A stretch of 64,000 bases of DNA from a plasmid, in the sequence record CP099787.1, one strand, 5' to 3'. Positions 300 through 56,742 of the stretch are shown here, piece by piece. Each line of letters begins with the position of its first letter. Positions within the stretch are counted from its first letter, which is position 1. The position numbers and the translations under genes were made by a program. Under the pieces are notes generated by a model, which saw nothing but the letters and a program-made list of their open reading frames with translations, was not told the origin of the DNA and made no database searches.

Positions 300-839
300 T
301 TATAAATTATTTTTCATAACCGAGTAAGTATATAACTGCTCCCAAGCCTCTAGTTTTAAAAACATCAGTGCTTTTTCATATGTAGCACCCTTAATATACA
401 TCCCTCCATCCTTGATCAATCCCTCTGACAAATTTTTCTCTATTTCATTTTGAGGTTCTAAATGCTCTTTTTTTAGGAAATCAATATGTTCTTGAATCAC
501 TAGGTTAAAGTTAATGCCTATATGGTTTAATCTTTCAGTCTGACTTAACTGATCATCATTTAAATCATAAGTAGTTAAAAAAGCTATCTCCTTGCTTCTA
601 GCTACATTATGTTTTGCTACCGCAATGTAAAGTGAATGGCCTGTGACAATATTTGTGATTTTAGAATAATATGATTCAGGAAAATCTTTAATCAATTTCT
701 TAGCATTTGGATCTGTTGGCAAATTTTTATAATTTAGTTCTACAAATAGATAATTGTTTTTAAAACTTCTGTTTAAATTCATTTTCATACTCCATAAGCT
801 TTTCAGCTCATCTATAGAAACCAGCCTATCCGATTTCAC
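300..839 (-). CDS. hypothetical protein; true start probably ATG near 788 (MKMNLN...). The ORF-track N-terminal extension reads through the conserved 5' UTR hairpin
   Basis: UTR hairpin plus SD GGAG then AUG at about 788; upstream region is repeat copy A. Confidence 0.5.
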   Translation of the reverse strand: MKSDRLVSIDELKSLWSMKMNLNRSFKNNYLFVELNYKNLPTDPNAKKLIKDFPESYYSKITNIVTGHSLYIAVAKHNVARSKEIAFLTTYDLNDDQLSQTERLNHIGINFNLVIQEHIDFLKKEHLEPQNEIEKNLSEGLIKDGGMYIKGATYEKALMFLKLEAWEQLYTYSVMKNNL

Positions 840-844
840 CCCTT

Positions 845-885
845 AATTATACTACATTTCATGTCTTTTTATTAAGAAAAAACAT
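845..885 (-). promoter_or_regulatory. sigma70-like promoter, -10 TAGTATAAT (plus-strand 847-855); predicted TSS at the conserved GAAAUCGGAUAGGCUGG
   Basis: Perfect TATAAT read on the minus strand; the same -10 box recurs at 11366, 15268 and 20710. Confidence 0.5.
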
Positions 886-923
886 ATATTTAGTGTATTT
901 TTTCGTGTTATAAAAGACATTTG

Positions 924-1102
924 CAGAGCAACGTGTCCACGTTGCGAACTGATGAAATTTGCGAGCATCCCCCTCCTTGATTACCGTTTCAAACTTCGAG
1001 CGAGTCAGTCAAAATCTGTGATTTTGACTAGACGACCGAAGAAGTGAAACTTCTCCCATTGGACCTTATCCGGTAATAACAAAGCAATCCCGCAGGGTTG
1101 CG
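924..1102 (-). repeat. Repeat copy A of the ~180-bp structured leader element; the extended A/C homology block spans about 796-1170
   Basis: Near-identical to 12964-13142 and 15358-15527; contains perfect hairpins GCAACGTG/CACGTTGC, GTCAAAATC/GATTTTGAC and GAAGT/ACTTC. Confidence 0.85.
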
Positions 1103-1404
1103 ACAAATAGCCCTCTAAATCGCTCTAATTGCCCCTAGATTCAATTTTAAAGATAAACAGCATCCGATCATGCTGCGTTAGGGATGTTGCCCGTAAGGGG
1201 CGAAATACAAGCGTAAAAAAAGAGGATTTGAATCGAGTATTAAAATCAGGTTCAGGCTTTGCATGAAACTAGATTTTAAACTCGATGGATCCTCTTTTTC
1301 GCTTGGAGTTCGAGCGAAGCCAACTAGCCCGGCCCGTAGGGAACGCCAAAATATTTCCAACAGATATTAAATTATTGTGAAGACACCTGGCTAATTACCA
1401 CACA

Positions 1405-1944
1405 CTAAAGATCATGAATTTGTTTCTGATACCAAATTTTGTTTTCGGCTAGAGCTTGATTGAGACGTTTATTTTTAACTAAATCAAGTATTTCCTTTTG
1501 CTCATGATAGGTTATAAGATTGTCTATCTTTGCTTTATTAATTATTTCTCTTACGTCAGGTTCATTCTTGTATTTTTCATAATAATGATTCGAAATTAGA
1601 TCTTCCATTGCATCGTTTGAGACAGGTTTTTTTGCTAAATAATTATCTACACATTTTTTTAATGGTTGTGTATCTACACTTGATTTCAAGACATACCTTG
1701 TTTCCTTATTTAATTCAATTTTAACAAGCGAAAGTTGACTGATATTAATTACATCCATGCAATTATCGTAAATTTCTGAACTTAATTGATCAATTTCTAG
1801 CGACTCAATCGGATAATTGCTTGCTACATAATCTTTTATTTCTTTTTCTACAACCAATTTTTTTAAGGTATTAAGACTATCTTTTGTCATACAACCAGAT
1901 AATATCGAAGCAATGGCGATCATTACAGCTAGTTTTTTCATCAA
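1405..1944 (-). CDS. lipoprotein (lipobox LSGC), paralogue of the next gene
   Basis: Signal peptide plus Cys; C-terminal block similar to 1991-2554 (CVDNYLAKKPVS... vs CVDDYLVKTPIS...). Confidence 0.55.
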   Translation of the reverse strand: MMKKLAVMIAIASILSGCMTKDSLNTLKKLVVEKEIKDYVASNYPIESLEIDQLSSEIYDNCMDVINISQLSLVKIELNKETRYVLKSSVDTQPLKKCVDNYLAKKPVSNDAMEDLISNHYYEKYKNEPDVREIINKAKIDNLITYHEQKEILDLVKNKRLNQALAENKIWYQKQIHDL

Positions 1945-1990
1945 ATTCTCCTAAAGCTCTTCAGCTCTTTAATGCTCTGATAAGCTACTT

Positions 1991-2554
1991 TTAAAGACTT
2001 TGAAAGTCATGTTGGTATGCAGCTTTACCCAAATCAATTTCATGGTCGTAATGTTTCTTCAACACTAGTCCAAGTATTGTCTGGTATTCATAATAGCTGA
2101 TTAAATGATCAGCTTTAGCGTTATCAATTAACGAACGTACTTCAGGATCATTTTTGAATTGCTCAACTCTTGTATCCTCTTTCAGATTTTTCATTGACTC
2201 TTCTGAAATTGGGGTTTTTACCAAATAATCGTCAACACATGATTTGAGATCATTAATATTCACATCTTTATCTAAAACATATTCAGACTCGATACTTCTG
2301 ATAGATAATTTAACCCTCTGTTTCTTGATCATCCTTTTATTAATATTCAAATATTTACTACAAGTACTATATATCGATGGAGTTACATTTTTTATGTCGC
2401 TTATTACAATCATCGAATATTGATCTTGAAGGTACGTATTGATAGTTTTTTCTACAATTTCTTCTTTTGCAAAAGCAAAATCTTCGTCACTCATGCACCC
2501 GGATAAAGCTAATACCAGGGCAAATATTAGAGGTATATTTTTCATCAGTATCAC
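1991..2554 (-). CDS. lipoprotein (lipobox LSGC), tandem paralogue; start likely ATG at about 2545
   Basis: Signal peptide plus lipobox; similarity to 1405-1944. Confidence 0.55.
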   Translation of the reverse strand: MILMKNIPLIFALVLALSGCMSDEDFAFAKEEIVEKTINTYLQDQYSMIVISDIKNVTPSIYSTCSKYLNINKRMIKKQRVKLSIRSIESEYVLDKDVNINDLKSCVDDYLVKTPISEESMKNLKEDTRVEQFKNDPEVRSLIDNAKADHLISYYEYQTILGLVLKKHYDHEIDLGKAAYQHDFQSL

Positions 2555-2625
2555 CTTAAGCCTTAGAGCTCCAGTATGAAAATTAAGTCCTATCTAGACT
2601 GATAAGACCTATTTAAAGCTGAACA

Positions 2626-3174
2626 TTAAATTTTTTTATTTGGCCTAATAACAATTTGAGCCAAAGTATCCTGGGATCTATCAATTATGTTTTCGGAAAT
2701 ATTCAATACTTTTAAAGCCTCAAGTCCAAAATAACTTCTCACATAATTATTCCCGTCAGATGTTGTTAAGAATCTTAAAGTGTCAATTGCAGCAACAAAA
2801 AAGAGTATCTGAAAAGTGATTTCCGCTAATTGCCCTAAATAAGCATAACGTTCATGATTTGATGCGCTTTCTAACGCACCAACAATTTTCTGGATATCAT
2901 CAAAGGGAATCATAATTGAGCAACATAGAATACCCATGATGAAAAAAGCAGGAAGGAGTTCAAGGCATTTACTAAAAGCATTCAGAAAATGCATCACTAA
3001 TGGCCAAACATGTTTTTTTAAAAAAACTAAATCCGTATAAGCCTTCTTTACAATACTGAAGTATTCTTTAGCAGATAAAGTTCCAACAATTTCATTATTG
3101 AAGTCAACAGCATAGCTAAATTTAGATTTATTCATAACCTCTCCATAAGCCCTTCGGCTCGTTAAATAATTCAA
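2626..3174 (-). CDS. membrane protein; true start likely about 3132 (MNKSKF...)
   Basis: Hydrophobic segments; UTR hairpin plus SD inside the track's N-terminal extension. Confidence 0.45.
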   Translation of the reverse strand: MNYLTSRRAYGEVMNKSKFSYAVDFNNEIVGTLSAKEYFSIVKKAYTDLVFLKKHVWPLVMHFLNAFSKCLELLPAFFIMGILCCSIMIPFDDIQKIVGALESASNHERYAYLGQLAEITFQILFFVAAIDTLRFLTTSDGNNYVRSYFGLEALKVLNISENIIDRSQDTLAQIVIRPNKKI

Positions 3175-3804
3175 TTATTTATTATCAACTTTTTCACAGT
3201 ATGCTTTGATCTTTGCAAAGTCTTTATTTGATAGGTTTTCAATGTCATTAGACTTATGACCATTCTCTTTTAACCAGGTTTTGCAATCGACAACGATTTC
3301 TTTTGTTTCAACTGAAGAGTTTGATGCATGACTATTTGAAGAGCCGGACACGATCCAAGCTAACAACATCCAAGTCATCCAATCATTTGAAGATTTATAC
3401 TTTTGATGTTGTTCATGTTTAAATCTATCATAGCTGCTTAGGCTATTATTTTGCACCGGATACGGTTTTTGAACAGCTTGTTTTACTTCAGTACTTTTCA
3501 CTACCGGTTTAACTGTTTTGGTTGTCGGATTAGATTTGGAGGTGGTATTAGCCACTGGTTTATATGTGGTGGTTGCTGAAGGTTTAGAAGGTGTGTAGCT
3601 TGGTTTACTTATGCTACTACTTGGTCGAGAAGTATAGGAGCTCGGAGAGCTTGAAGAATATGATTTACTACTCGATGATGATGAATACGAGCTTCTGCTT
3701 GATGAAGAGCTGTAACTAGATCTAGAAGCAGCATAGCTGGTAGAAACTAATGTTGAAACACTTAAACCAACTACAACAGCTTTAATAAAATAATTAATTT
3801 TCAT
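3175..3804 (-). CDS. secreted Ser/Tyr-rich low-complexity protein
   Basis: Signal peptide, then SSYSSSSSRSSYSSSSSSKSYSSSSPSSYTSRPSSS repeats. Confidence 0.5.
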   Translation of the reverse strand: MKINYFIKAVVVGLSVSTLVSTSYAASRSSYSSSSSRSSYSSSSSSKSYSSSSPSSYTSRPSSSISKPSYTPSKPSATTTYKPVANTTSKSNPTTKTVKPVVKSTEVKQAVQKPYPVQNNSLSSYDRFKHEQHQKYKSSNDWMTWMLLAWIVSGSSNSHASNSSVETKEIVVDCKTWLKENGHKSNDIENLSNKDFAKIKAYCEKVDNK

Positions 3805-3975
3805 AGGTAATCCTCTTAACTTAATACCCGGTGCATAACATTGAATGATCTATTGGGTTTTCAACTTTTGGATCTAAAATTTGATCACAAAGTGAACAAT
3901 GGTACTTCTCTGCCTTAATGAGAATTTTTTTGACATTCCCGCCTAAGCCTAAAGACAATATGTCTTCTTCCTTTT

Positions 3976-4548
3976 TTACTTCTGGATGCTTTGTTTCCAT
4001 GTAAATGCCTCCTGAGCTTTAATCGAAATATCAAGGTCAACTAATAACAAACTCAATTTATTCTTTGTTGTTCGTAAATCCTCGATACTACTTATTGAAA
4101 TTTCATCTGTTTTATTTTTATCGCTAGTAAAATTACCCATTTTTAAAATTTCAGAAATTTGATTATTAAAATCCCATCTAATAATTAAAATATCATGTAC
4201 TATTAGCTTGTTACTCTTTCTCAATTTTGCCTTAACATTCTCAACATATTCTGGATAAACAGATAATATGTTTATTAGAGTTAAAACCCCATCATCCGTT
4301 AGCTTTCTTGAAAGATCCTCAATTTTATTAATCTTTATCATAAAAGTTGCAAAAGTTAATCCAGCTAAAGCAATTGAAGCTAGTTTCAAGGTATATGTGA
4401 CTTCATCTATAAAAAAATTCTGATTAAATGCGAATATTAAAAATACTATTGACACCAATATTGCGAGCCAATAATTATTCAACAATTCTTTAAAATTCAT
4501 TTTGAAGAAATCTTTAGATGTAGGAGAATTCAATAATAAATTTTCCAT
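3976..4548 (-). CDS. membrane protein (2-3 TM)
   Basis: ORF with SD AGAGG; hydrophobic stretches. Confidence 0.45.
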   Translation of the reverse strand: MENLLLNSPTSKDFFKMNFKELLNNYWLAILVSIVFLIFAFNQNFFIDEVTYTLKLASIALAGLTFATFMIKINKIEDLSRKLTDDGVLTLINILSVYPEYVENVKAKLRKSNKLIVHDILIIRWDFNNQISEILKMGNFTSDKNKTDEISISSIEDLRTTKNKLSLLLVDLDISIKAQEAFTWKQSIQK

Positions 4549-4552
4549 ATTT

Positions 4553-4810
4553 CTACCTCTTTTTTAAAATTTGACTATTATTTGAAGGGCATACCCAACC
4601 TTTTATTTCAGTTGATGTACCGTCTTTCGGAGAAGTTATATAACCTACTGTTTTATATAAGCATGGCTCACCTTGAGCACTAACTTTAGGCCATAAAGCT
4701 GCTTGGATATGATCAAAATGTTTAATGAAAACAAATATAAAGAAGAGAAAAATAGCTATTATAAAAATAGTAGCTATTTTATTTTCAAAGCAATGTAGTT
4801 CACTTTTCAT
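4553..4810 (-). CDS. small membrane protein
   Basis: ORF preceded by UTR hairpin plus SD. Confidence 0.45.
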   Translation of the reverse strand: MKSELHCFENKIATIFIIAIFLFFIFVFIKHFDHIQAALWPKVSAQGEPCLYKTVGYITSPKDGTSTEIKGWVCPSNNSQILKKR

Positions 4811-4914
4811 GAGAACACCTTAAGCTTTTCAGCTCATCAATCTATTAATACTTTCAGTACCAATAATACAATATATCGGATTATATTTTAATCATTTTAT
4901 TTAAAAATTAATCC

Positions 4915-6195
4915 TTAATTATGCTTATAATATGGCTCAATCATTTTTCTAATTTTATTTCTCAGTTCATATTGCCTTAATTCAGATAAACCGTTAAGTA
5001 TGCCAAAAGGGATTAAAATAAATAAAAACCAATAAACTACGGCTTTATAATAAAAGTTCCAAAAGCCACTAAAATTATCATTCTTTTTTGTGATTCCTAA
5101 AGCATACTCATACGAATACTTAATATCAGGATTAATAGAAAAAGTAATATCATCCCTTTTTAAATCTGCTAACTGCAAAAGTATGGTATAACCTTTTTGA
5201 ATAGCCTCCCTATTCTGTGGTGTCAAAGTTCGTGAACCGTTCAAATATTCTACTAAAACGTCCTGTGATTTATTATATGTTTGAACCGTACTTTCATAAT
5301 TTTTTAGAAAGAATTCTTTGTTATGTTTTCCTATTGTTGAAGAAGGATTTGAACCATTCACCATGTTATAAACATCAAGTGCTGCAAAATGAACTGGTTC
5401 TTTAATTTCGCTTTTATTATCACCTAACGTTAGTAATCCCGCTACAAGAAGAACAAGTACAAAAATTATGACGCAAACATAATTTACTAAAGATAAGTCT
5501 CTGATATTGAATTTGTCATATTTTTCAGGGTCTTTAGAAATTTCTATCAGGGCCTTATTATCACTCTGTAAAGCTTTAATAGAATAATTGGTGTTCCACA
5601 TATCCCCGTGTGTCTTCGCTATATCAAAGTTACCCAATTTATCTTTAGCAAGATTAATAGCCATATCGAAAGACTTAAGGCTTAAGTCATTGTTCACAAT
5701 TTGCAGGCTATTTAAATCATTAAGCTTAGATAGCTTTTTATACTCATCTTCATTATCAGAAGTCAGTTCACTTAATTTCTTTTGTAAGACCTCTCTAAGT
5801 CTTTGACGTAATTCAAAGTTCCTTTGATACTTTTGTTTTTCAGCAATACAACCTTCGATAAGTTCTTTAAGTTTTCGCTCTGTATTTTCATACTGCTTAA
5901 GAATTAAAGGTAGTACATATTTAGCTTTCTGTATTGCTTGTATATGTTTATAAACTAGTTCTTTATCGTAGACGTATAGAATAGATCTCTTACTTTTTTC
6001 AAATTGTTGAAATGTGAATGAAGACATTACGTTAAAGTAATCTTCATGGATTACACCCATTTTATATCCGCAATCTTGTAAGGTCGTAAGGGATTGCGGA
6101 TGACCTGGTAAATCCTGAATTTCACTTAATAATGAGTCTAGTTCGTTTTCATTAATGAAATTTGTTTTTAATGCAGATAAGTACTTAGTGTTCAT
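4915..6195 (-). CDS. hypothetical protein with a central TM segment; possible TelB/KlaC-like partner of the TelA-like gene
   Basis: Position immediately downstream of the TelA-like gene; TM helix; no motif recognised. Confidence 0.35.
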   Translation of the reverse strand: MNTKYLSALKTNFINENELDSLLSEIQDLPGHPQSLTTLQDCGYKMGVIHEDYFNVMSSFTFQQFEKSKRSILYVYDKELVYKHIQAIQKAKYVLPLILKQYENTERKLKELIEGCIAEKQKYQRNFELRQRLREVLQKKLSELTSDNEDEYKKLSKLNDLNSLQIVNNDLSLKSFDMAINLAKDKLGNFDIAKTHGDMWNTNYSIKALQSDNKALIEISKDPEKYDKFNIRDLSLVNYVCVIIFVLVLLVAGLLTLGDNKSEIKEPVHFAALDVYNMVNGSNPSSTIGKHNKEFFLKNYESTVQTYNKSQDVLVEYLNGSRTLTPQNREAIQKGYTILLQLADLKRDDITFSINPDIKYSYEYALGITKKNDNFSGFWNFYYKAVVYWFLFILIPFGILNGLSELRQYELRNKIRKMIEPYYKHN

Positions 6196-6207
6196 AACAT
6201 TTCCCCG

Positions 6208-7311
6208 TTAATCTGCACTGATTTTTAATTGTTGCGGATCCGCAACGACCAGGCTTTTGAGCTGATCATTTAATTGTTGTGCCTGTAATTGTGTTTCTTT
6301 TCGCTTCTGAGCTGAAGTTTTGTTGATTGCCATAACTTCTTCAAAAGCAGTTAATGTATCAAGCTGCACCTTCTGAAGTGTCTCAATATCTATAACTTGG
6401 CGGTTGCTTTGTTTTGCAATATGAATTGAAGTTTCTTTAAAATCTTTCGCGCTTTCTAGAAGTGTTTCATTTGTGAAATTATCAATTTCCTCACCTAATT
6501 GTGAGTATTTCTTTTGATCTAAAATATTCAAGGCCAACATTAATTGTCTTTGCCAGGCTGGAATAGTTAAGCCAGATATAGTTTGGAACTTTTCAATTAA
6601 CGCAATATTATTGTTCTGCAAAAAAGTAATCTGAGGCAACGTTTGTAAGGCACTTAATCTCAACAATTCTAGATCCGTAATACGCTTATCTAAACGCTCT
6701 AAGATTTGTGAATATGCATTTGCTCTTTGCTTTGCTAGATCTGTACCTTCACTGTTAAGTGACTCAATCAAGCCAATAAGCTCATTTTTTTTATATCGAC
6801 CAGCTATGACAGCAAAACCTAGTTGAGTATAAACAGAAATTGTATGCTCAAATAATTTCGTCAAGCTATCATTATTTAATTGCAACCCTTTTTGAGCTTC
6901 TGCTACTTGCAATAAATTATCATTTAATTGTGATTCTACTGTCTTAAATTTAGTAATAAGCCTGTCTTTTGAATTACCAATTTTTGCTAACAGCCCCCCT
7001 ATCAACGGTATATTTGATTTATCACTACCAATGGAAAAGTCTGTTCTTTTTAATTTTACAGTAATATCCGTCATTAATTCTCCCATAACTCCCAACTGAT
7101 CATTAGTAACTAATGACAGCATTTGGTTAGAAAGATCAGCTAACGAATCACGGTTATTAGCCCCCAACTCAAGTACCTTTTGTGGGTTCTTAATTAGATC
7201 TAAGTTTTCAACTATTGCTAAAACTTCATCTTTTCTATCAATATCAAGATCAAGTTTTTCCATTTCATTTTCAATTGAAAATACTTGTGTTGTTAATTCA
7301 TTATTTAGCAT
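6208..7311 (-). CDS. TelA/KlaB-like toxic-anion-resistance family protein (tentative)
   Basis: Size (~367 aa) and coiled-coil-rich composition recalling the TelA family; the 16-bp palindrome lies in-frame at its 3' end (VADPQQ). Confidence 0.4.
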   Translation of the reverse strand: MLNNELTTQVFSIENEMEKLDLDIDRKDEVLAIVENLDLIKNPQKVLELGANNRDSLADLSNQMLSLVTNDQLGVMGELMTDITVKLKRTDFSIGSDKSNIPLIGGLLAKIGNSKDRLITKFKTVESQLNDNLLQVAEAQKGLQLNNDSLTKLFEHTISVYTQLGFAVIAGRYKKNELIGLIESLNSEGTDLAKQRANAYSQILERLDKRITDLELLRLSALQTLPQITFLQNNNIALIEKFQTISGLTIPAWQRQLMLALNILDQKKYSQLGEEIDNFTNETLLESAKDFKETSIHIAKQSNRQVIDIETLQKVQLDTLTAFEEVMAINKTSAQKRKETQLQAQQLNDQLKSLVVADPQQLKISAD

Positions 7312-7346
7312 TTTAAAACTCCTTAAGTCTTACGACTCGCAATTAC

Positions 7347-7625
7347 TCACCAGTTTATTAACTGAAGAAAAAGATTAAACGTTGTAAAGAGAACCATTGC
7401 AATGGTAGAAATTAGAAGAAGCAAAGAGATTGTACTATCATCATCATCACCATAAATCAAAGATATAAAATAAAGTCCAAAGCTAAGTATTATTAGAATA
7501 ATATTTCTAAATACTACTTCGTCCCATATATACCTAATGAAAAATATTAAAGCAGCGTATGCAAGTAGGACGATTAAAACTCCGATCGAGAACCGAAGGA
7601 TTTTGGCAAGTTTTTTCATAAACAC
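7347..7625 (-). CDS. small membrane protein
   Basis: Two TM helices; UTR hairpin plus SD upstream. Confidence 0.45.
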   Translation of the reverse strand: MFMKKLAKILRFSIGVLIVLLAYAALIFFIRYIWDEVVFRNIILIILSFGLYFISLIYGDDDDSTISLLLLISTIAMVLFTTFNLFLQLINW

Positions 7626-7657
7626 CTCAAGCTTTGCAGCTCTACTTTCAACATATT

Positions 7658-7891
7658 TTATTTAACCGGATATACGGGTAATTGTCCTTTTTCACAGCTA
7701 TAGGATCTTCGCTCTTTTACCTCTGAACCAAACTTAACGCTAATAATTTCGTTACCAGCATCATGTTTTAAACGCTTAAGTACTTCTTTTTTACACTCTT
7801 GTTCTGATTGGAACGGTATCGTATAAACAGCATGTTTATTCGGAGAGAAAATATTAATAACCAAGAACCAGGCACTAACCCATTTAACCAT
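7658..7891 (-). CDS. small hypothetical protein
   Basis: ORF track only. Confidence 0.3.
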   Translation of the reverse strand: MVKWVSAWFLVINIFSPNKHAVYTIPFQSEQECKKEVLKRLKHDAGNEIISVKFGSEVKERRSYSCEKGQLPVYPVK

Positions 7892-7905
7892 TTTTTAATC
7901 ACTAC

Positions 7906-9135
7906 TTATAAAGATGACCAATAAACCAACTGCCCAGGTACTTCTTTCTTTTTCCAAAATAAGTTGTCCGGCAAGTACTCTTCACTTAAATAACAAACTG
8001 CGTAAAGTATTTCTGCATAGCAGTGAAGTTTTGTTTCACTTCTTGAATAAGCTGAGAATGTAGGTGTATTTAATAGTGCATAACCGTTTGAAGTAACGGT
8101 ATATTTATGTCTACTATCAACTATGTTTGTTCCATACAATTGCATTGCATAATCTAAAGTATCTGGTTGAAATACAGGAAAACCGGATACATAACGGTTT
8201 CTTAAATCGTCATCTACTGTTTTTGGATCCGCCTCATATAACCAATAGGTATTTTCTGGTACAAAATCACAAATTGATTTCTGATAAACAAGTCCAGTTG
8301 CAATGCGTATATCTTCATTAAGTATATAATTTCGTACTTGATTGGCAGCACTTGGACTCTCACAGCTAATAATTAAATGTAGAGCTAATTTTCCATTGCT
8401 CTGATCAACTTGGCCGACACCTACGTTTGTACGTGTTCTTGGATATTTAATTACTTTCTCACGCACTGAGACATTTTGATTTTTTTCAGTACCAGAAATT
8501 CCAATCGCAAAATCAACTTTTTGGCCTGTCTTTAATTCAACATAATTAAAGAAGCTCGCAATAGATGTGACACTTGGTAAACCTGTTGCTATTAAATTAC
8601 TGCTTAAATTAGCATCATCAATAAAAACAGTTAAACAAAACTCATCATCAGGTAGTTTTGATTTACTAAATTCAATAGGTCTTAAAGTAATTTCAGGTGT
8701 ATTAAAGCTATTAATTTTTCCCTGTGAAATCTCAATTAACTCATTGTAATCAGAAAAGGATCTTTCTCGATCTTCAACTGTTACTTCTAAAAGTGCATTC
8801 CCATAGTCTTTATTTCTCTTATTAAGCTCATAGTAAATCCCAATTGCTGGCATCGGTGTGATTGCAACCGGCCCTAAGTCTTTAAGTGGAATTGAAACCT
8901 GCTTAACTTTAGAATCAACTAGATCAGGAATACCCTTAAACGTTGCACAATTTAATTCCTTAAAACAATTTTTACGCAAGCTTACAGTTTTAGAGCTTAT
9001 ATAGTTTAACGGTATATCAAATTGGATTTCTGCATAGATTGGACTATGCATAGACTTCTTATGGAACAAAGCTGGTGAGTGTGTAGCCTGTTTTGCTGTA
9101 GCAAGGAATTCTTCAGTATTAAAATTAATATTCAT
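7906..9135 (-). CDS. hypothetical protein (409 aa)
   Basis: Long ORF; SD GAGGA; preceded by a 17-codon uORF. Confidence 0.5.
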   Translation of the reverse strand: MNINFNTEEFLATAKQATHSPALFHKKSMHSPIYAEIQFDIPLNYISSKTVSLRKNCFKELNCATFKGIPDLVDSKVKQVSIPLKDLGPVAITPMPAIGIYYELNKRNKDYGNALLEVTVEDRERSFSDYNELIEISQGKINSFNTPEITLRPIEFSKSKLPDDEFCLTVFIDDANLSSNLIATGLPSVTSIASFFNYVELKTGQKVDFAIGISGTEKNQNVSVREKVIKYPRTRTNVGVGQVDQSNGKLALHLIISCESPSAANQVRNYILNEDIRIATGLVYQKSICDFVPENTYWLYEADPKTVDDDLRNRYVSGFPVFQPDTLDYAMQLYGTNIVDSRHKYTVTSNGYALLNTPTFSAYSRSETKLHCYAEILYAVCYLSEEYLPDNLFWKKKEVPGQLVYWSSL

Positions 9136-9136
9136 T

Positions 9137-9190
9137 TTAATCCTCGCTTTTAAATGTAATTAAACACATGTTGCAAGCTAACGATTTCAT
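9137..9190 (-). CDS. 17-codon upstream ORF (MKSLACNMCLITFKSED); its stop overlaps the SD of the downstream gene
   Basis: Carries the conserved UTR hairpin plus SD itself; stop TAA sits within GAGGATTAAAATG of the 7906-9135 gene. Confidence 0.35.
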   Translation of the reverse strand: MKSLACNMCLITFKSED

Positions 9191-9270
9191 AGTTTCTCCT
9201 TAAGCTCTTCAGCTCTATAGCTTTTTGAATTATTAAATAAACAAGGAGGTCGCCCCCCTTGTTAGTTGTT

Positions 9271-10527: not shown

Positions 10528-10530
10528 AGC

Positions 10531-11304: not shown

Positions 11305-11360
11305 TGTTCTTTACTCCAAGCATTTCTGCTCAATTTTGAAATCAGCCTATCCGATTTCTG

Positions 11361-11400
11361 AATAAATTATACTACTAAAACATACTTTTTTGCAAGAAAA
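11361..11400 (-). promoter_or_regulatory. parAB promoter: -35 TTGCAA, 18-bp spacer, -10 TATAAT
   Basis: Read on the minus strand; the 24-bp palindrome lies about 40 bp upstream. Confidence 0.5.
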
Positions 11401-11435
11401 AGATTAAATTTTATAGCGCCAATTTGTCTTAAATA

Positions 11436-11459
11436 GGTTGTTGCGGATCCGCAACAACC
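11436..11459. repeat. 24-bp perfect palindrome GGTTGTTGCGGATCCGCAACAACC (candidate ParB/KorB operator or parS)
   Basis: Seen directly in sequence; intergenic, upstream of parA. Confidence 0.9.
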
Positions 11460-11496
11460 TAAGCTTGTGTAAGTTACATCTATGCATATAAAAAAA

Positions 11497-12274: not shown

Positions 12275-12302
12275 TTTTTTCTCCGCAAGCTCTTCAGCTC
12301 AA

Positions 12303-12800: not shown

Positions 12801-12963
12801 TTTTTCACCATAAGCTTTTCAGCTCAAAATACGAAATCAGCCTATCCGATTTCTAACCCCAAAATTGTAATACAATGATGTATTTTAATCAAGATCTTTA
12901 AACGTTAATATTGTTAAAAAACATTAATTTAATGAAATATATTTTCGAATTAAACATTACTAA

Positions 12964-13282: not shown

Positions 13283-14075
13283 CTAAGCTACATTCGCTTG
13301 GTTAAACATATTTAAGATATCAATTGCTGAAGTATTTTGACGAAAAAAAACTCTATCAGGCCTGCCTGGTTGATTGTTAGTTTGCCCGTGGATCCTTTCC
13401 ATTCGTAAATGAAACTCTAAAGCAAACGGATTTGATTCAAGCTGCTTCAATAATTTTGGAAATGATTTCTCAAAACACATATTACAATTTCCATCCCATT
13501 CATTTAGCTCTAGATCAAACGCTTGCTTTGACCACCAATCTAATATGAATTGCTTATCCACTGGATGTTCTGTGACTAATGGATAAATAAAGTTATTTGC
13601 TTCTGCATCCTTAGCACAACGTTTAGATTCATCAGCCCGGATACCGATTGCAGTAGGGATATCTTTAGGTTTCATCCCAATACTACGAATATATGAATCC
13701 ATTGGTCTTATTTTTAATTCACGGGTGCAATGCTTATAAACTTTATTAGGAATTCCGTATTTCTCAATCATCTGTTCAAAAAGTACTGGCCCCCTGGTAG
13801 CTGTCTTAAAATTGACAACTTTATGCGTCGTACCTACTCTTTTTTTAGGGTGAATAACTTGCTTCTAACCAAACTGTATTGAAATTAAAATATTTATCAC
13901 ATTTATCGACAAACTCTAAAGTTTTCTCATGCTCAATGCCTGTATTTGCAAATGTGACTATAAAGTTATAAAGGTGGCTATAGTTATTAAGCAAGTACCA
14001 GGTTAAATATGCTGAAGTACGTCCACCACTAAAGCTAATTTGATAATATGATTTCATTAATTTCACCTTAAGCAT
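13283..14075 (-). pseudogene. PAPS-reductase-like PP-loop ATP pyrophosphatase split into two ORFs (13845-14075 and 13283-13771)
   Basis: SFSGGRTSA P-loop in the N-terminal ORF; CTRELKIRP and GIRADES in the C-terminal ORF; T7 run at about 13848. Confidence 0.55.
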
Positions 14076-14328
14076 TTCTGCTCGAATCTCAATTGTTTTA
14101 GCCTTTTATAATTTTTAATCTGAACCGCATCCCTCTTTATTAAAGGCCCCCATAGGTAGCTCCCAGTTTTTTGTAAATATAGGCAAGGTATATTCTTTTC
14201 TCATTGCCTGATCCAAAGCTACTAAATCATTGATATTAAAAGGCTGAATACCCTCACTTATATTTATGACATTGATTTTTTTTCGACTAATTGTAGTTGC
14301 AAATTGTTCTTCGTATTTAAAAATTCGA

Positions 14329-15207: not shown

Positions 15208-15357
15208 TCAATTCACCTTAAGCTTTTCAGCTCATATATAGAAACCAGCCTACCCGATTTCACCCCTCAATTATACTACATTTTCATGTCTTTTTATTAA
15301 GAAAAAACATATATTTAGTGTAATTTTTCGTTTTATAAAATACTTTTGCAGAGCAAC

Positions 15358-16172: not shown

Positions 16173-16880
16173 TCAACTCAAGAAAATCTTTTTCGTTTCA
16201 TTAGGATCAATAGCATGATGTAAGTTCACCTTACTCCCGTCCGAATACCCTTTTACTCGTGCTTGATTAAGCATATCTTTATTATAATGTTTAACACTTT
16301 TAACTTCGCAATATATAAGATTAAGAGTTTTCTCATATTCGCTCAGTTTTTCCTTTAGCTCTTTATCTGGATTTAAGTTCCTACACTTTTTTTCAACTCC
16401 AAGAATCCACCCTCTATGATAGCTTATGCCTAAACGTCTCTTAGATTTAAGTTTAGTATTTCCATGTAAAGTGGCTAAATAACTTTGTTTATTTTTAATC
16501 AAAATAGGGAGTAAAACAGTATATGCATATGTTGCAATAGACACATTTGGTTCAACTCCATAAAAAACATGTTGTTGATATTTCACACCTTCTAAAGTGT
16601 AAAAACCTGAGTAACTTCCGCATTCAAAGACATTTGCGATCATTACTTTAAGCCGTCTTTCAATATCTTTAGTTCTTTGAGTTTTTGTCTGAATAATTCG
16701 CTCTTTAATATCACTAATTAGTATCTGTTTTTCACTTATTTTGTACTTCTGCATCAATGTCTGTGCTTGCTTAAGTGCAACGGCTGCTTCATGCTCATTG
16801 GCACTTTTTGATAATGCTAGGCACTTACTAATTTTATCTATGATAGTTTGCATATCTTCCATTTTTGGCTCCTTAAGCAT
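16173..16880 (-). CDS. conserved plasmid hypothetical protein; start likely about 16861 (MEDMQ...)
   Basis: UTR hairpin plus SD. Confidence 0.45.
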   Translation of the reverse strand: MLKEPKMEDMQTIIDKISKCLALSKSANEHEAAVALKQAQTLMQKYKISEKQILISDIKERIIQTKTQRTKDIERRLKVMIANVFECGSYSGFYTLEGVKYQQHVFYGVEPNVSIATYAYTVLLPILIKNKQSYLATLHGNTKLKSKRRLGISYHRGWILGVEKKCRNLNPDKELKEKLSEYEKTLNLIYCEVKSVKHYNKDMLNQARVKGYSDGSKVNLHHAIDPNETKKIFLS

Positions 16881-16911
16881 TTCTGCTCAATTAAAATAAG
16901 TTTTAAAGATT

Positions 16912-20292: not shown

Positions 20293-20685
20293 TTAACAGT
20301 CATTTTCATGGTCCACCTCTGTGTTAAATAGCTTTAACTCAACGAACCAGTAATTAAACTTACCTTCTACACTAGCAATTATTTCTGCATATACTCCCTT
20401 TGAATTAACTAAAATTTTGACATCTTCTAAATCAATAGGACCTTTGAAGTTAAGAAGGCGTAAATGAATGAAGTTATGTAAATTGATTTCAGGTATACGA
20501 TATGTAGTGAAGAAACAGGATTCCAAGCTTTTCAGCTTCGCAATACTCTGATCTAAGTCCTGAACTATTTTTTCAGGCAAATTAAGAATGAGGGTTTCAA
20601 AGTCTAAGTGACTTTTAAAATTTAGGATATTATCTGGGAAAGCTAGAAATTGAATGGTTTCTACCATCTTGAACTCCTTAAGCAT
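20293..20685 (-). CDS. hypothetical protein
   Basis: UTR hairpin upstream. Confidence 0.4.
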   Translation of the reverse strand: MLKEFKMVETIQFLAFPDNILNFKSHLDFETLILNLPEKIVQDLDQSIAKLKSLESCFFTTYRIPEINLHNFIHLRLLNFKGPIDLEDVKILVNSKGVYAEIIASVEGKFNYWFVELKLFNTEVDHENDC

Positions 20686-20796
20686 TTCTGCTCATTAATT
20701 GCGTAGATTATACTACTAAAACATACTTAAAACAAACTGTTTATTATTTAGCTATACTAACAGACGGTTCTGTATATTTAAACAAAAAAAATAACT

Positions 20797-26618: not shown

Positions 26619-26659
26619 CCAAAACACATTTTTGAGCCTCTCGGCTTCAGGAGTCAATA

Positions 26660-37397: not shown

Positions 37398-37430
37398 AAC
37401 ATCACCTTAAGCCGTGAGGCTCCTTTATTA

Positions 37431-37760: not shown

Positions 37761-37930
37761 AGAGACACCATAAGCCCTTCGGCTCTAATTAAGTTTAAAA
37801 ATCTTGACCTGGTTGGGTATTTGTAAGTACCCAAATTCTTTCTATGACTTCATTTAAAGACATTACACCAAATCCGATCGGTGCGTGATCTTTAGTTTTT
37901 TTAGATGCAATAAAGGTAGCGGGTACTTTT

Positions 37931-43544: not shown

Positions 43545-43591
43545 GAATACACCCTAAGCCGTCAGGCTCCTTAATCAAAAAATCTGTCTAA

Positions 43592-47364: not shown

Positions 47365-47652
47365 TTATAAATTCTCCAATGCTGTATGTGAATCAACGGC
47401 TTTTTCATTTTGGAAAGCCAAAATTGATTCATTGAATTTAGTTTCTTCATTCGGCTTCTTAGTTGTCTTAACAGGTGGACGAAGATGTACCTCAAGCTTA
47501 GAAATTACTTGATTAACATTTTTTGAGTTATTGACTGTTAAACACTTTTCTTGATAAGGGCTCGTTGCTAGAGCACTGCATCCTGAAAGTAAAAGAATGA
47601 ATGGACAAATAATTAAATATTTCATTGACTCTCCTGAAGCCGTGAGGCTCAC
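47365..47652 (-). CDS. small lipoprotein
   Basis: Lipobox LLSGC; UTR hairpin upstream. Confidence 0.45.
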   Translation of the reverse strand: MSLTASGESMKYLIICPFILLLSGCSALATSPYQEKCLTVNNSKNVNQVISKLEVHLRPPVKTTKKPNEETKFNESILAFQNEKAVDSHTALENL

Positions 47653-48399: not shown

Positions 48400-48440
48400 C
48401 CATTAAAATGCGTTTTTGTTGATTCATTGGAGTTGCACTT

Positions 48441-49710
48441 TTAGTTATTAAAACATTGATTCGCTACTGTGCCACCTTGTTGAACAACAATCTCTAAAGT
48501 TCGCCCTGCACTAACTTCAATAACAGGAAATAAGTCATTTGCCCGTTGCATATAGAAATCAGAAAGTTTTTCTGCTCCACCTGAAATCGCACCACCTACT
48601 GCGGCTTGCTTCAGTTCACTTCCTGAAATCGTTCTAACAGTACCTAGCGCCGATTGGCTTGCTGTACCAACTGTACTACCGTACAGTCCACCTATAGCCT
48701 CCATTGCGGATGCTAATGCAGCTTTAGCAAGAATTTGACCTTGTTTACTTACTACACGGCCACGAATACCAGTTTTGCCGTCTTCTCCAACGACTTGACC
48801 TTTAATTTGAATTGGTACTGTTTGACCATTAATAATGCAGTTACCACTTTGAATTGTTGCTTTAACACGTTCACTCGATAATTCACCCCAAGCGGCTCCT
48901 ACAAAACGACATCCTTTGATGTTCATTTTATAATTATTTGGCATATCGAATTTCCCAACTGTTTGGAATACAACTGGAATTGGGTCCGACTGTGCTTGTC
49001 CACCAGTTGGTGCATCTACGCCATTAATCATTACGACACGAACAAAACTCCCATCCGGGATAAATGTTGTTTTCTCAGGTCGTTGGCTTTTAACTGAAGT
49101 AGATGTTGTATTTCCTTGTTCATCAATTGACTTATTCATGTCAATAATGCCAAAGGTTTTAACTGGAGCTATATTATTTGGTAAAGGTATTCGCTCGCCT
49201 GTCTGAGGATCGATACCAGTTCCATTTGGATCTGATAGAATACTTTGTCCATGCAATCCTTGTTTATTTGGATAAGCTGAAGATGTACCAGCTATTCCCC
49301 CAAGATTTGGTGGATTTGTATTTGTTGGTTGTGCTACCACTCTTGATTCGGAACGATTAGCAATTTGACTAATACGCTCGTTCATTATTGATAGTTCTGA
49401 CTTTAACGCATCATTTTGAGCAACTTGAGAGTTAACGGTTTGAGTTAAATCATCGAATTTGCTTTTTTTGAGCTTCTTGATCAATTGCGGCCGTTTGTCT
49501 CCATTTATCTTGCTCTTCAGCATCACCCGGTTTTTCCACATTTACCGCATTTTCAGGTGCTTGAGTTTTATTCGTTTCTTCTGGTGGACTTCCAGAAAAC
49601 AAGAAAATAGCAACAATAATGAATAATATTGTGCCTAATATGGCCAACCATTTAATTTGTTTTTTCTTGAGTTTGTCATTAGGATTTTCTAAATCGATAT
49701 CGTTACTCAT
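48441..49710 (-). CDS. traB: TraB/VirB10-like, split into two overlapping ORFs (49450-49710 and 48441-49541)
   Basis: N-terminal TM plus Pro-rich region, then VirB10-like C-terminus; T7 run at about 49466. Confidence 0.65.
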
Positions 49711-54307: not shown

Positions 54308-54563
54308 CAGATCAGACTCCTACATTTATAAACAAATATCATGGGTAACTATAATTGCCATATTTACTATCAATATGGCTTTTTTGGGTATAGTTAAAAA
54401 GACCTCAGAATTATATATGGTTAAAATAGAATTTTGAGCATCTAAAATGGCCTAGCCAACCTTGCTGAGTTATATTGACCAAATATACATATTAAATTAT
54501 ATTGATTCAATATAACATCATAAAACTTTATGAATGAGCTGAAAAGCTTATGGAGTACAAAAA

Positions 54564-55223
54564 ATGATCCATGAAAATATCTACATGCATGATGTAATCG
54601 ATATATTCGATGTTTATCAAAAAGACGATCTGCTTAAGAAATCCAAACTAGGACTCATGAAAAAATGGGATACTTTCTCAATTATAGCCATATTTTTATC
54701 CATAATTGCTTTAATCGGTGGTTCCCTATGGTTAGTTGGTTTAGTTAGTCATGAAAAATCTAATAATGTTGATACTGCATTTATGATAGCAATTAGCGGA
54801 CTTGTATCGATCATTATTAATTACTATTTAAATAAAAAAATAACAGAAATAATTTTAAGAAAAGTTTTTTATTCTTCAAAAGAAAAAGAATTTAAATTAT
54901 CTAGACCAATGTATATTAACTTAGTATTACTTTCAGATTATGAGCGATGTTCAGCTCTCATTGAAAAGGAAATCAATGAAGATATGTATAAAAAGGTATT
55001 GTATCTGAAAGATAATTATAATCTCCCTTTAAAAAAACCAATCGAAAAGATCATGAAAGAAAGAGGGTATATATCCTATTTTGACTATGAATTTTTATTC
55101 ATAGAACATTTTTATAAAAGATTCAAAGATATGGAATTTGAGACGATACAGGAATCAAAGATCTTAGAAGCAAGAGAACGTATCGGTGAAGCTAACAATA
55201 TCACTAATGATAAAAAGGAGTAA
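54564..55223 (+). CDS. membrane-anchored hypothetical protein
   Basis: UTR hairpin GAGCUGAAAAGCUUAUGGAG upstream. Confidence 0.45.
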   Translation: MIHENIYMHDVIDIFDVYQKDDLLKKSKLGLMKKWDTFSIIAIFLSIIALIGGSLWLVGLVSHEKSNNVDTAFMIAISGLVSIIINYYLNKKITEIILRKVFYSSKEKEFKLSRPMYINLVLLSDYERCSALIEKEINEDMYKKVLYLKDNYNLPLKKPIEKIMKERGYISYFDYEFLFIEHFYKRFKDMEFETIQESKILEARERIGEANNITNDKKE

Positions 55224-55365
55224 CAGATTAAAAATGGTTCAAGAGATGTTATTGAATCAAATAAATAATACAATTCGGTATTATTACATTTACTTTTTCT
55301 TGAATTTTGTAGATACTTAACCTAGATTTTTAAAGAATGAGCTCAATAGCTTAAGGAGATATACT

Positions 55366-55563
55366 ATGGGGTTTAAATTTAGTTTAATTACGCTAATTAT
55401 TACAGCATTAGGTGTACTATTTATTTTGGTAGGTTTGTATTGGTACAAATCTAAAAAGTATCAAAATGATTTATGGGTTCAAAATGTAGGCCATATGACT
55501 TTAATTATCGGTCTATTTCTGAGTATAAATGGCATTGGTTTTTCAATTAAATTTAATCAGTAA
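55366..55563 (+). CDS. small membrane protein
   Basis: SD AAGGAG. Confidence 0.4.
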   Translation: MGFKFSLITLIITALGVLFILVGLYWYKSKKYQNDLWVQNVGHMTLIIGLFLSINGIGFSIKFNQ

Positions 55564-55776
55564 GAGAGGGTTAATAAATTGGTCCATTATTCTATTTAAC
55601 AGGAATTTCAATTTTAATGGGCTGGCATATATTATTTATCCATAGATTTAATAATCATGTGACACCATGTCTTGCAGCGGTGTTAGCATTATCATTTATG
55701 TTAATTCAATCCAATTTTCCGCCTTCAATATTACAAATTAATTAACCAATACCAAAATTTTAGAGCTGAAAAGCTT

Positions 55777-56238
55777 ATGGAGTTAAACATGGAATTATTG
55801 CAACCACTAGACTTAATTAACAATTGTCTTATTACGCTTCCTAATACAGACACTTCATTTTTGAATCCAACATCTATTAATGTAGCAATGAATTGTGCTA
55901 GTTATATGATATTGTCGATAGTCATTAGTTTGATAGCACTAAAATTGCTAACTTTTAAATTTGTAAACTTAAATATTAATATAATTGCCTTATCTCTTTT
56001 TATAGGAACTACTATAGGCTTTTTATCATTTCCATATCATTTGAATAATGCTATGAAACCATATCAACAGGCTTTAGATATTGCTTTACCAACAGTTAGA
56101 ACTGTAAATGATCCAATCCTGAATTCTGTATTTGTAAAAGGAAGTTATACACTATCAGAATATGGATCACTCGCAAAAAAATACAACGAAAGATCAGAAG
56201 TAATTAAATCATTTGCCATTAAAAACTCTTGTAAATAA
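55777..56238 (+). CDS. membrane protein; start likely about 55789
   Basis: UTR hairpin. Confidence 0.4.
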   Translation: MELNMELLQPLDLINNCLITLPNTDTSFLNPTSINVAMNCASYMILSIVISLIALKLLTFKFVNLNINIIALSLFIGTTIGFLSFPYHLNNAMKPYQQALDIALPTVRTVNDPILNSVFVKGSYTLSEYGSLAKKYNERSEVIKSFAIKNSCK

Positions 56239-56252
56239 AGAAGGTTATTACA

Positions 56253-56531
56253 ATGGATAGTTTTACACTTACTCTATATCTTTCAAGTTTTTTATTGTTG
56301 CAATCACTGAGTTTTCTTTTTAAGGATGACTTTGAAGAATTTGATACTTCTTTAATTGGTTTAAGTTTAATGTGTGGAATAGGAATTAAAGCTTCATTAG
56401 TTTTTTTTACAACCACACTTTCTATTAATAAAATAGCAAGTATCATATTTTTAATTCTATTTACAATTTTTTCTTTAATCCATATCCTCATTAATTTTTA
56501 CAATTCTGTTGTAAAAAGAAAATACGGATAG
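56253..56531 (+). CDS. small membrane protein
   Basis: TM helices. Confidence 0.35.
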   Translation: MDSFTLTLYLSSFLLLQSLSFLFKDDFEEFDTSLIGLSLMCGIGIKASLVFFTTTLSINKIASIIFLILFTIFSLIHILINFYNSVVKRKYG

Positions 56532-56559
56532 TTTCAACATACGAGCTGAAGAGCTTAAG

Positions 56560-56742
56560 GTGAATTATATGCATCTTAGATTTAATGAACTTACAACTGT
56601 TTTATGTATTGCCTCCAATGCGATTATAATTCTTGGAATCCTTATCATAAGAAAAGGACGACATATTGGTATTGGTCAAGCATTTATTTTCACTGGACTT
56701 ATCCTTAATACAAATTGCTTTGTTTTTGCTTTAAAGCCCTAA
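56560..56742 (+). CDS. small membrane protein; start likely about 56569
   Basis: UTR hairpin GAGCUGAAGAGCUUAAGGUG. Confidence 0.35.
   Translation: MNYMHLRFNELTTVLCIASNAIIILGILIIRKGRHIGIGQAFIFTGLILNTNCFVFALKP

Follow-up and report, generated by a model that had tools for sequence, protein, structure and literature searches.

A candidate RNA hairpin joined to the Shine-Dalgarno sequence recurs at gene starts in a clade of Acinetobacter conjugative plasmids

Introduction

Why would two dozen unrelated genes on one plasmid share the same small stem-loop directly in front of their ribosome-binding sites, and what could such a signal do for them? The question is raised by a 64,000-nucleotide (nt) stretch of plasmid DNA (sequence record CP099787.1; hereafter the window), in which a short inverted repeat fused to the Shine-Dalgarno (SD) sequence, here termed the hairpin-SD, recurs upstream of genes on both strands. 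A preliminary description made from the sequence had noticed the repeat and proposed that it forms an RNA structure. Here, we combine a covariance model, comparison with related and diverged plasmids, genome and viral scans, and RNA folding, and find that the element is best supported as a sense-strand RNA hairpin restricted to one plasmid clade, which we tentatively read as a translation-initiation module.

Many complete Acinetobacter baumannii plasmids of 64-90 kb, including pACICU2 (NC_010606.1), match the window at 99.9-100% identity, and PLSDB, which holds >200 near-identical plasmid records, types its relatives as conjugative, MOB_F, MPF_F, and rep_cluster_734. By this match, the window is a pACICU2/RepAci6-type conjugative plasmid of A. 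baumannii, a type that ranks with the main conjugative vehicles of resistance to carbapenems and aminoglycosides in this species. Its G+C content is 30-38%, and its gene coordinates were carried over from two annotated relatives.

Results and discussion

A hairpin and Shine-Dalgarno core precede 24 genes in the window

The motif reads (U)GAGC-N-[4-nt loop, mostly GAAA or GAAG]-N'-GCUU followed after 0-2 nt by GG(A/U)G, and 24 copies lie within the window (Table 1), the gap-free alignment of which yields the consensus nTGAGCTGAAAAGCTTAAGGAGA. The hairpin is 14 nt long and its stem has five base pairs (bp), namely G.U, A-U, G-C, C-G, and a variable N-N'. The spacing of four nucleotides between GAGC and GCUU given in the preliminary description is therefore corrected to six, made up of the variable fifth pair and the 4-nt loop. 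When a covariance model of the 24 copies was searched against the full window, with filters off, it recovered exactly these copies, at 23.3-35.8 bits (E 5e-8 to 2e-4), with the runner-up at 13.6 bits. A count of the antisense core CWCCTTAAGC with one mismatch allowed gave 27 occurrences against 6.0 +/- 2.5 by chance, about 22 of them motif copies. The motif is present at all 22 positions listed beforehand, and a structural scan added two that had been overlooked, with GAGC starting at 7338 (-) and 55339 (+).

All 24 copies are sense to the downstream open reading frame (ORF), and the distance from the 3' end of the hairpin to the start codon is 9-14 nt in every case (ATG in 23, GTG in one). 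Five copies are on the plus strand, four copies lie within tra operons, and every copy follows the orientation of its own gene. Fourteen copies have GGAG as the SD core and the other 10 have GGUG; the full UAAGGAG, for which complete complementarity to the 16S rRNA 3' end had been claimed, occurs in five copies only. The spacing from the stem to GGAG varies as well, both in the window and, with other values, in other plasmid lineages.

Compensatory changes support a fold of the sense strand

Among the 23 distinct motif sequences of the window, the closing pair of the stem is U-A in 11, C-G in seven, A-U in four, and U.G in one, with no unpaired case; at the fourth pair, 22 sequences have C-G and one has U-A, and the outer three pairs (G.U, A-U, and G-C) are invariant. 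This structure beat all 500 column shuffles of the alignment in percentage paired, in cells changed on both sides, and in covariation score (three of five measures); for pairing percentage, double changes, and covariation score, it also beat each of the slid registers. In a wider set of 86 copies, drawn from five plasmid lineages, complementarity of the closing pair held throughout (C-G 46, U-A 30, U.G 6, A-U 4, and A.C 0). Pair 3 had a single double change, from G-C to A-U, as did pair 4, from C-G to U-A. The first loop position is G in 72 of the 86, and half of the loops (43) are GAAA.

The same changes can be followed at individual genes. Seven orthologous genes carry the motif both in the window and in a diverged plasmid (p2BJAB0868 or a plasmid from a metagenome-assembled genome (MAG), both described below), and at six of them, i.e., parA, the N6-methylase gene, the 165-amino-acid (aa) ORF, m14083, m20693, and the signal peptidase gene (lepB), the closing pair has been substituted on both sides. 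Because the non-Watson-Crick pairs are all of G.U type on the sense strand, and would be A.C mismatches on the opposite strand, the fold is one of the sense strand. These observations support a sense-strand RNA hairpin that is kept by compensatory change, with mRNA as its simplest carrier. The initial view that the stem covaries, and that it is an RNA structure rather than a DNA site for a protein, thus stands in its compensatory changes but needs narrowing, as the covariation is concentrated in the closing pair. Isolated hairpins have predicted folding energies of -3.8 to -7.4 kcal/mol, and the mean stem probability in native context is 0.84.

The same evidence bears on whether the repeat might instead be a double-stranded DNA operator, at which a plasmid repressor would block transcription at many gene starts as at phage stoperators. 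As an imperfect palindrome (RAGC-N6-GCTY) in short intergenic regions and in fixed orientation, the motif does resemble the stoperators of phage L5 (PMC3203893), but its inner pair covaries with departures of G.U type on the sense strand only, and its fixed 9-14 nt to the start codon fits translation, not transcription. A genuine DNA palindrome of this plasmid, the perfect palindrome TTGCGGATCCGCAA, is by contrast sequence-invariant in its 10 copies, which is how a DNA site read by a protein behaves. We consider a DNA operator highly improbable.

The motif is confined to one clade of Acinetobacter plasmids

The genome and viral scans covered specific sequence forms only. The pattern GAGCNGAARNGCTTAAGGWG (GAAR-loop, AAGGWG form), searched in one genome for each of 185,579 species, matched 59 loci, which is near a rough chance estimate, and none of the matches in this form was on an Acinetobacter chromosome. 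One exception stood out, a 'Clostridiaceae' MAG with nine exact matches at five loci on four contigs. The contigs of this MAG (CAZNMO01, labelled uncultured Clostridiaceae) hold 14 motif copies by the covariance model and are 65-72% identical to this plasmid; they carry parA/parB, a type IV coupling protein (T4CP) gene, and mobF, which have 65-84% identity to the window. Judged by these genes and identities, they are evidently an Acinetobacter-type plasmid mis-binned into a Clostridiaceae MAG. A host-wide ribosome-binding context is therefore rejected for the scanned forms, the 59 loci being chance apart from this one mis-binned plasmid. A phage origin is rejected too, as three IMG/VR scans gave isolated chance-level matches only.

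Related plasmids have the motif in graded forms. The syntenic but diverged p2BJAB0868 (~68% identity) has ~30 covariance-model matches. More distant MPF_F/MOB_F relatives have no covariance-model match and carry their own lineage-specific hairpin versions: pAS62-4 of A. seifertii (NZ_CP061586.1) has at least 12 copies of AAAUGCC-G(A/U/C)A(A/G)-GGCUU-GGAG-U(C/A)..GAAAAUG, with ~35 nt conserved and some copies at orthologous genes, and pBDT201-3 of A. indicus (NZ_CP094261.1) has about six copies of (G)GGCC or GAGCC-GAGA-GGC(C/U)-(N)AGGAG. All lineages share a short hairpin that has a GC core, a GNRA-like loop, and an SD directly adjoining it. No comparable hairpin was found in a Moraxella catarrhalis relative, and tblastn matches to TraH were dominated by F-type plasmids. 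For the forms scanned, the motif is confined to one clade of Acinetobacter MPF_F/MOB_F conjugative plasmids, within which it exists in lineage-specific variants.

Rfam gave no family match at gathering thresholds (at E<=1, there were only two unrelated weak matches, at 118-250 and 32217-32365), and no description of the motif was found in the searchable literature on RepAci6, pACICU2, pAb-G7-2, and p1AB5075. Both results agree with the earlier impression that this is not a described element, and we class the hairpin-SD among start-associated, structured translation-initiation motifs, where it appears to be undescribed.

Most copies are intercistronic and some belong to a repeated promoter unit

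Two-thirds of the window copies (16 of 24) are intercistronic, lying 2-31 nt past the stop codon of an ORF on the same strand, and the sequence just upstream is AU-rich. Five copies follow a TATAAT -10 box, four of these in a repeated promoter region of ~200 bp. The order in this unit is TATAAT, 8 nt, an inverted repeat G(A/G)AAUC-GGAUAGGCU-GAUU(U/C)C, 5-8 AU-rich nt, and then the hairpin-SD. Seventeen such inverted repeats from three lineages include variants with G.U and one compensatory change, from A-U to G-C; their 9-nt loop is conserved and contains GGA, and copies occur in the CAZNMO01 contigs as well. The inverted repeat may be an operator, or it may fold as a second hairpin of the RNA, ~2 nt from where transcripts are predicted to start. 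The preliminary description, which had seen the hairpin with its SD, missed both this larger unit (promoter, first hairpin, then second hairpin with SD) and the lineage-specific variants.

The upstream half of the ~200-bp promoter repeat is near-identical in three copies on the minus strand (~925-1060, 12960-13150, and 15340-15530) and holds a further inverted repeat, GCAACGTGGACACGTTGC. In NZ_CP140435.1, a variant with a natural deletion, the deletion ends within this repeat, at about window position 925.

The motif marks mainly accessory genes of a presumed leading region

In the complete plasmid, there are at least 30 hairpin-SD copies, six of which lie beside the T4CP/relaxase operon, in the 6 kb that separates the T4CP gene from the start of the window and is omitted by it. 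These six and 14 copies within window 1-21 kb, 20 in total, are in a uniformly oriented gene block that points to the intergenic region upstream of the relaxase operon, the putative oriT. The equivalent block of pBDT201-3 begins with ardA and other antirestriction genes. From the direction of the block towards the expected oriT and from these antirestriction genes, we infer that the block is probably the leading, i.e., first-transferred, region. The motif marks mainly lineage-specific accessory genes in this presumed leading region, plus a few gaps inside the tra operons.

Such a location invites the idea of a single-stranded DNA hairpin on the transferred strand (T-strand), used for priming, as a single-strand promoter, or as a nuclease signal, and small GNRA-type DNA hairpins can indeed be stable. 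We regard this idea as the least credible of those weighed here. Copies are concentrated in the presumed leading region, but five are on the other strand, four are in tra operons, and all follow gene orientation; further, if the T-strand is the template for leading genes it holds the complement of the motif, in which G.U becomes A.C. The variant of this idea put forward earlier, a single-strand promoter active on transfer, is disfavoured by an element of 14 nt that has no -35/-10, is gene-oriented on both strands, and stays 9-14 nt from starts.

A different role is suggested by the turnover of the genes behind the motif, which are mostly lineage-specific. The hairpin-SD might be a portable junction sequence, a short homology at the 5' edge of accessory genes through which ready-to-express cassettes are swapped between plasmids, as with the PeSL cassettes of T4-type phages discussed below; the hairpin would then persist by travelling along with the genes. 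Few of the motif genes have orthologues in p2BJAB0868, which has ~30 motif genes of its own; the synteny of the two plasmids is interrupted between motif genes, with one block beginning inside the motif at 14073; the same slot is occupied by a PAPS-reductase gene in the window and by a C5-methyltransferase gene in p2BJAB0868, with the motif before each; and the ~200-bp promoter units that contain the motif number at least four in the window. Yet 24 nt is short for homologous recombination, the compensatory substitutions at orthologous sites show selection on pairing that a pure recombination role does not need, and in the one presence/absence polymorphism examined (NZ_CP140435.1) it is the long promoter repeat, rather than the hairpin, that holds the boundary. 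We hold such a junction role to be quite doubtful, though it would be compatible with either of the two functional readings that follow.

A cis-acting translation-initiation module is the preferred reading

We read the hairpin-SD, with a probability of roughly 0.4, as a structured element that acts in cis, forms the 5' boundary of a standard translation-initiation region, and would insulate and stabilise each cistron; its function as a stabiliser or enhancer is one that we infer from the arrangement of the sequence. The 5-bp stem with its mostly GNRA-like tetraloop would fold in the transcript directly 5' of the SD, and by folding fast this hairpin would keep the ribosome-binding site apart from the coding RNA that precedes it. 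If an endonuclease then cut in the AU-rich spacer, a 5'-proximal stem-loop that slows 5'-end-dependent decay would be left, and stacking of the hairpin on the SD/anti-SD helix may contribute. The net outcome would be strong, independent translation of every cistron, whatever its origin, which would suit establishment genes with very few transcripts after conjugative entry. That the architecture but not the sequence is kept in pAS62-4 and pBDT201-3 favours such a structural role, read by conserved host machinery.

Two more specific versions were rejected. An exact coaxial-stacking register with the 16S rRNA 3' end does not fit the varying distance from stem to GGAG or the 10 copies with GGUG, so that stacking is retained as a possible contribution only. 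A hairpin that holds the SD open received no support from partition-function folding, in which the SD was not unusually open (mean unpaired probability 0.45).

This folding result also weighs against a translation-initiation module more generally, as do several other points. Within a lineage, conservation of the outer stem, GAGC/GCUU, goes far beyond what a role in structure alone would need, which suggests sequence-specific recognition or else spread by duplication and recombination, and each plasmid lineage has its own stem version. Where a copy is promoter-proximal, the hairpin predicted at the 5' terminus would be the other inverted repeat instead of the hairpin-SD. Further, a 5-bp stem is a weak barrier, and many plasmid genes have a good SD and no hairpin.

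The conservation of the outer stem, the separate version in each lineage, and the SD that is not opened favour instead a shared translational operator, in which an RNA-binding protein or small RNA of plasmid or host would read the GAGC/GCUU stem and switch ~30 genes together, for example to time establishment genes after transfer. Within a lineage, the outer stem and its G.U pair are near-invariant while the loop and closing pair vary, and a lineage-specific stem is as expected from co-evolution with a cognate factor. Overlap with the ribosome-binding site is the classical position of translational operators, and the motif genes are a spatially coherent set. On the other hand, no RNA-binding domain was found by Pfam among 48 hypothetical proteins or by PHROGs and NCBIfam among the ten most conserved; this is weak evidence because most plasmid proteins are orphans. 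The one conserved candidate compared by structure, the 165-aa ORF, is like YfbM and like a DNA mimic rather than an RNA-binding protein. No complementary small-RNA locus was found beyond the antisense of the copies, and the variable loops indicate that the loop is not the recognition element. We judge a shared operator to be somewhat unlikely, but it is the alternative to the preferred module that we take most seriously. A trans-acting antisense RNA as such was rejected, the complementary sequences being the antisense of copies and about five chance matches.

An extended form of the operator idea would join the hairpin-SD with the GAAAUC-GGAUAGGCU-GAUUUC hairpin that lies upstream of it at the 5' ends of transcripts, the two together being the operator set of a plasmid-wide post-transcriptional regulon. 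A putative RNA-binding factor, either a plasmid orphan or an Acinetobacter protein, would recognize the stem version of its lineage and thereby set the timing of, or license, the translation of ~30 establishment and anti-defence genes on entry into a new cell. Both the combined operator set and this licensing by a factor seem unlikely to us.

Implications

About a quarter to a third of the plasmid genes, chiefly poorly understood genes of the leading region, share one structured start signal, which points to a plasmid-specific layer of post-transcriptional expression control. As a sequence handle, the motif can be used for correcting start-codon annotation and for recognizing this plasmid clade in metagenome bins, and it opens mutational tests of establishment-gene expression after transfer.

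Individual copies and other features of the window

Two RefSeq starts in the reference plasmids fall within the motif (Table 1): that of 47365-47652 (-) is the GTG of GUGAGC, and that of 55777-56238 (+) is the ATG of GCUUAUGGAG. For both genes, the correct start is more likely the codon 9-14 nt past the hairpin. Behind another copy, the 17-codon ORF 9137-9190 (-), MKSLACNMCLITFKSED, has a stop codon that adjoins the SD and ATG of a 409-aa gene (7906-9135), an arrangement that suggests leader-peptide translational coupling; a terminator-like hairpin lies directly upstream of this copy, at 9263-9240.

The palindrome TTGCGGATCCGCAA, often extended to GTTGCGGATCCGCAAC, has 10 exact occurrences where 0 would be expected. 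Certain copies precede genes (H-NS, 4915-6195, and 31336-32328), and others are within coding regions. The set looks like dispersed ParB-binding sites of the parS/KorB type, as in IncP plasmids.

Eleven genes that are intact in the reference plasmids could be matched to no intact ORF of the same length in the window, with a tolerance of 15 nt around the transferred coordinates. They lie near 11495-12271, 13278-14051, 14109-15200, 19320-19511, 23010-24092, 32347-32889, 32953-35955, 37796-38584, 38601-40658, 48390-49706, and 58271-61546, and include traG, traN, traF, traB, mobF, and the methylase and PAPS reductase genes. The three that were inspected are shortened ORFs, and the failed matches are likely due to small sequencing or assembly indels, not biology.

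Table 1 Hairpin-SD copies (each a covariance-model match, written as 5' arm, loop, 3' arm, and SD region), promoter-unit inverted repeats, and palindromes of the window
Feature	Coordinates	Strand	Context
AUGAGCU GAAA AGCUUAUGGAG	788..811	-	34.4 bits; precedes 160-aa ORF 300-782; after promoter/inverted-repeat unit
GAGCU GAAG AGCUU UAGGAG	1946..1969	-	precedes ORF 1405-1941; intercistronic, 23 nt past upstream stop
GAGCU CUAA GGCUU AAGGUG	2550..2573	-	U.G closing pair; precedes ORF 1991-2545
GAGCC GAAG GGCUU AUGGAG	3139..3162	-	precedes ORF 2626-3135; 14 nt past upstream stop
GAGCU GAAA AGCUU AAGGUG	4814..4837	-	precedes ORF 4553-4810
GAGUC GUAA GACUU AAGGAG	7317..7340	-	pair 4 C-G to U-A; precedes TelA-family gene 6208-7311
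GAGCU GCAA AGCUU GAGGUG	7621..7644	-	precedes 90-codon ORF absent from PLSDB gene table
GAGCU GAAG AGCUU AAGGAG	9194..9217	-	precedes 17-codon ORF (9137-9190, approx.)
GAGCA GAAA UGCUU GGAG	11310..11333	-	precedes parA 10531-11304; after promoter/inverted-repeat unit
GAGCU GAAG AGCUU GCGGAG	12279..12302	-	precedes N6-methylase gene (GTG start); 2 nt past upstream stop
GAGCU GAAA AGCUU AUGGUG	12804..12827	-	precedes 165-aa ORF 12303-12800; after promoter/inverted-repeat unit
GAGCA GAAA UGCUU AAGGUG	14062..14085	-	precedes gene whose end is near 13278
GAGCU GAAA AGCUU AAGGUG	15212..15235	-	precedes PAPS-reductase-family gene; after promoter/inverted-repeat unit
GAGCA GAAA UGCUU AAGGAG	16867..16890	-	precedes DUF2786/DUF7168 gene 16173-16862
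GAGCA GAAA UGCUU AAGGAG	20672..20695	-	precedes ORF 20293-20667; TATAAT begins 19 nt upstream of hairpin
GAGCC UCUC GGCUU CAGGAG	26632..26655	+	precedes ORF 26660-27325
GAGCC UCAC GGCUU AAGGUG	37401..37424	-	precedes traH 35970-37397; p2BJAB0868 has orthologous copy
GAGCC GAAG GGCUU AUGGUG	37764..37787	-	precedes ORF 37431-37760
GAGCC UGAC GGCUU AGGGUG	43548..43571	-	precedes signal peptidase gene 43044-43544; p2BJAB0868 orthologous copy AAGCU GAAA AGCUU
GAGCC UCAC GGCUU CAGGAG	47629..47652	-	precedes 86-codon ORF; RefSeq start inside motif
GAGCU GAAA AGCUU AUGGAG	54534..54557	+	precedes ORF 54564-55223
GAGCU CAAU AGCUU AAGGAG	55337..55360	+	precedes ORF 55366-55563
GAGCU GAAA AGCUU AUGGAG	55761..55784	+	precedes ORF ending 56238; RefSeq start is ATG inside motif
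GAGCU GAAG AGCUU AAGGUG	56541..56564	+	precedes 57-codon ORF
Promoter-proximal unit, TATAAT and inverted repeat GAAAUC-GGAUAGGCU-GGUUUC	TATAAT 851-846; inverted repeat 837-817	-	7 nt before hairpin-SD
Further copies of promoter-unit inverted repeat	11338-11358, 12833-12853, 15241-15261	-	
Palindrome TTGCGGATCCGCAA	6232, 11441, 18378, 20798, 23834, 31293, 37542, 46861, 51919, 53649; 60601		first ten exact; 60601 with one mismatch

Comparison with known elements

Several familiar classes of element do not accommodate the hairpin-SD. It is not an intrinsic terminator, as its 3' flank is (A/U)AGG(A/U)G with no U run and a terminator scan of 1-20000 contained no motif copy, nor a CsrA/RsmA site, as there is no GGA in its loops (GAAA, GAAG, GUAA, UCAC, and similar); a looped GGA is present in the separate inverted repeat of the promoter unit. 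An attC-like cassette site of integrons is ruled out by size and by the lack of an integron integrase, the recombinase present being a serine recombinase only. Frpo-type and ssi elements are long imperfect hairpins of roughly 100-300 nt that recreate -35/-10 boxes on the transferred strand in one orientation; a 14-nt hairpin that is devoid of promoter hexamers and follows gene orientation on both strands is not of this type.

Closer parallels exist among hairpins that act on mRNA. Stabiliser hairpins are known from the E. coli ompA 5' untranslated region, from pap, and from T4 intercistronic tetraloop hairpins, and the hairpin-SD is by analogy like them in being a small, stable tetraloop hairpin in the untranslated spacer before a ribosome-binding site of polycistronic or phage-like transcripts, with a proposed protection from RNase E-type decay. 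Those stabilisers are individual and unrelated in sequence, however, whereas here one family is reused ~30 times per replicon at a fixed SD distance. In the phage translational operators of T4 gp43, RegA, and MS2 coat protein, a hairpin lies where the repressor competes with the 30S subunit, and the short hairpin beside or overlapping the SD or AUG is alike; the hairpin-SD differs in having many targets instead of one or few, variable loops, and no known cognate protein.

The promoter(early) stem-loop (PeSL) cassettes of T4-type phages combine a promoter and a terminator-like stem-loop beside variable genes (PMC2839356, PMC4122927). The likeness lies in a repeated intergenic stem-loop motif that flanks variable genes in plastic regions, with unrelated genes in equivalent slots and the motif at each. 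Unlike PeSLs, which act at the level of transcription and recombination, the hairpin-SD is tied to the ribosome-binding site, has no U-tract, and in 16 of 24 copies has no promoter.

The closest concept, by analogy, is the start-associated sequence (SAS) of cluster K mycobacteriophages. This 13-nt motif includes the SD and precedes 11-19 non-structural genes that are unrelated to one another, always in the same orientation and with a preference for ATG (Pope et al. 2011, PMC3203893). SAS is absent from the host and often has an upstream inverted repeat (the extended SAS, ESAS), for which Pope et al. found no support for RNA pairing; its function, unknown at the time (PMC3203893), was still unverified in 2025 (PMC12699233), and an SAS-like 26-bp repeat has been reported in a Citrobacter myophage (PMC4611695). 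Like SAS, the hairpin-SD is a short, conserved, asymmetric motif with the SD core in it, stands a few nucleotides upstream of many unrelated and mostly accessory starts in a single orientation with ATG preferred, is confined to one group of mobile elements and, for the forms scanned, essentially absent from the host chromosome, and varies between sublineages. Like SAS with ESAS, it often has a second inverted repeat upstream (GAAAUC...GAUUUC). The differences are that the hairpin-SD (TGAGCTGAAAAGCTTAAGGAG; GAGCN-loop-N'GCUU-AAGGWG) fails to match GGGATAGGAGCCC with <=2 mismatches, that it belongs to a plasmid of a gammaproteobacterial host and serves 24-30 genes rather than 11-19, and that its hairpin is 5' of the SD and shows compensatory changes, whereas SAS has the SD inside GGG...CCC. 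The hairpin-SD is thus a plasmid counterpart, with RNA covariation, of a phage element whose function has been open since 2011, and as a tractable Gram-negative system it could help settle that question.

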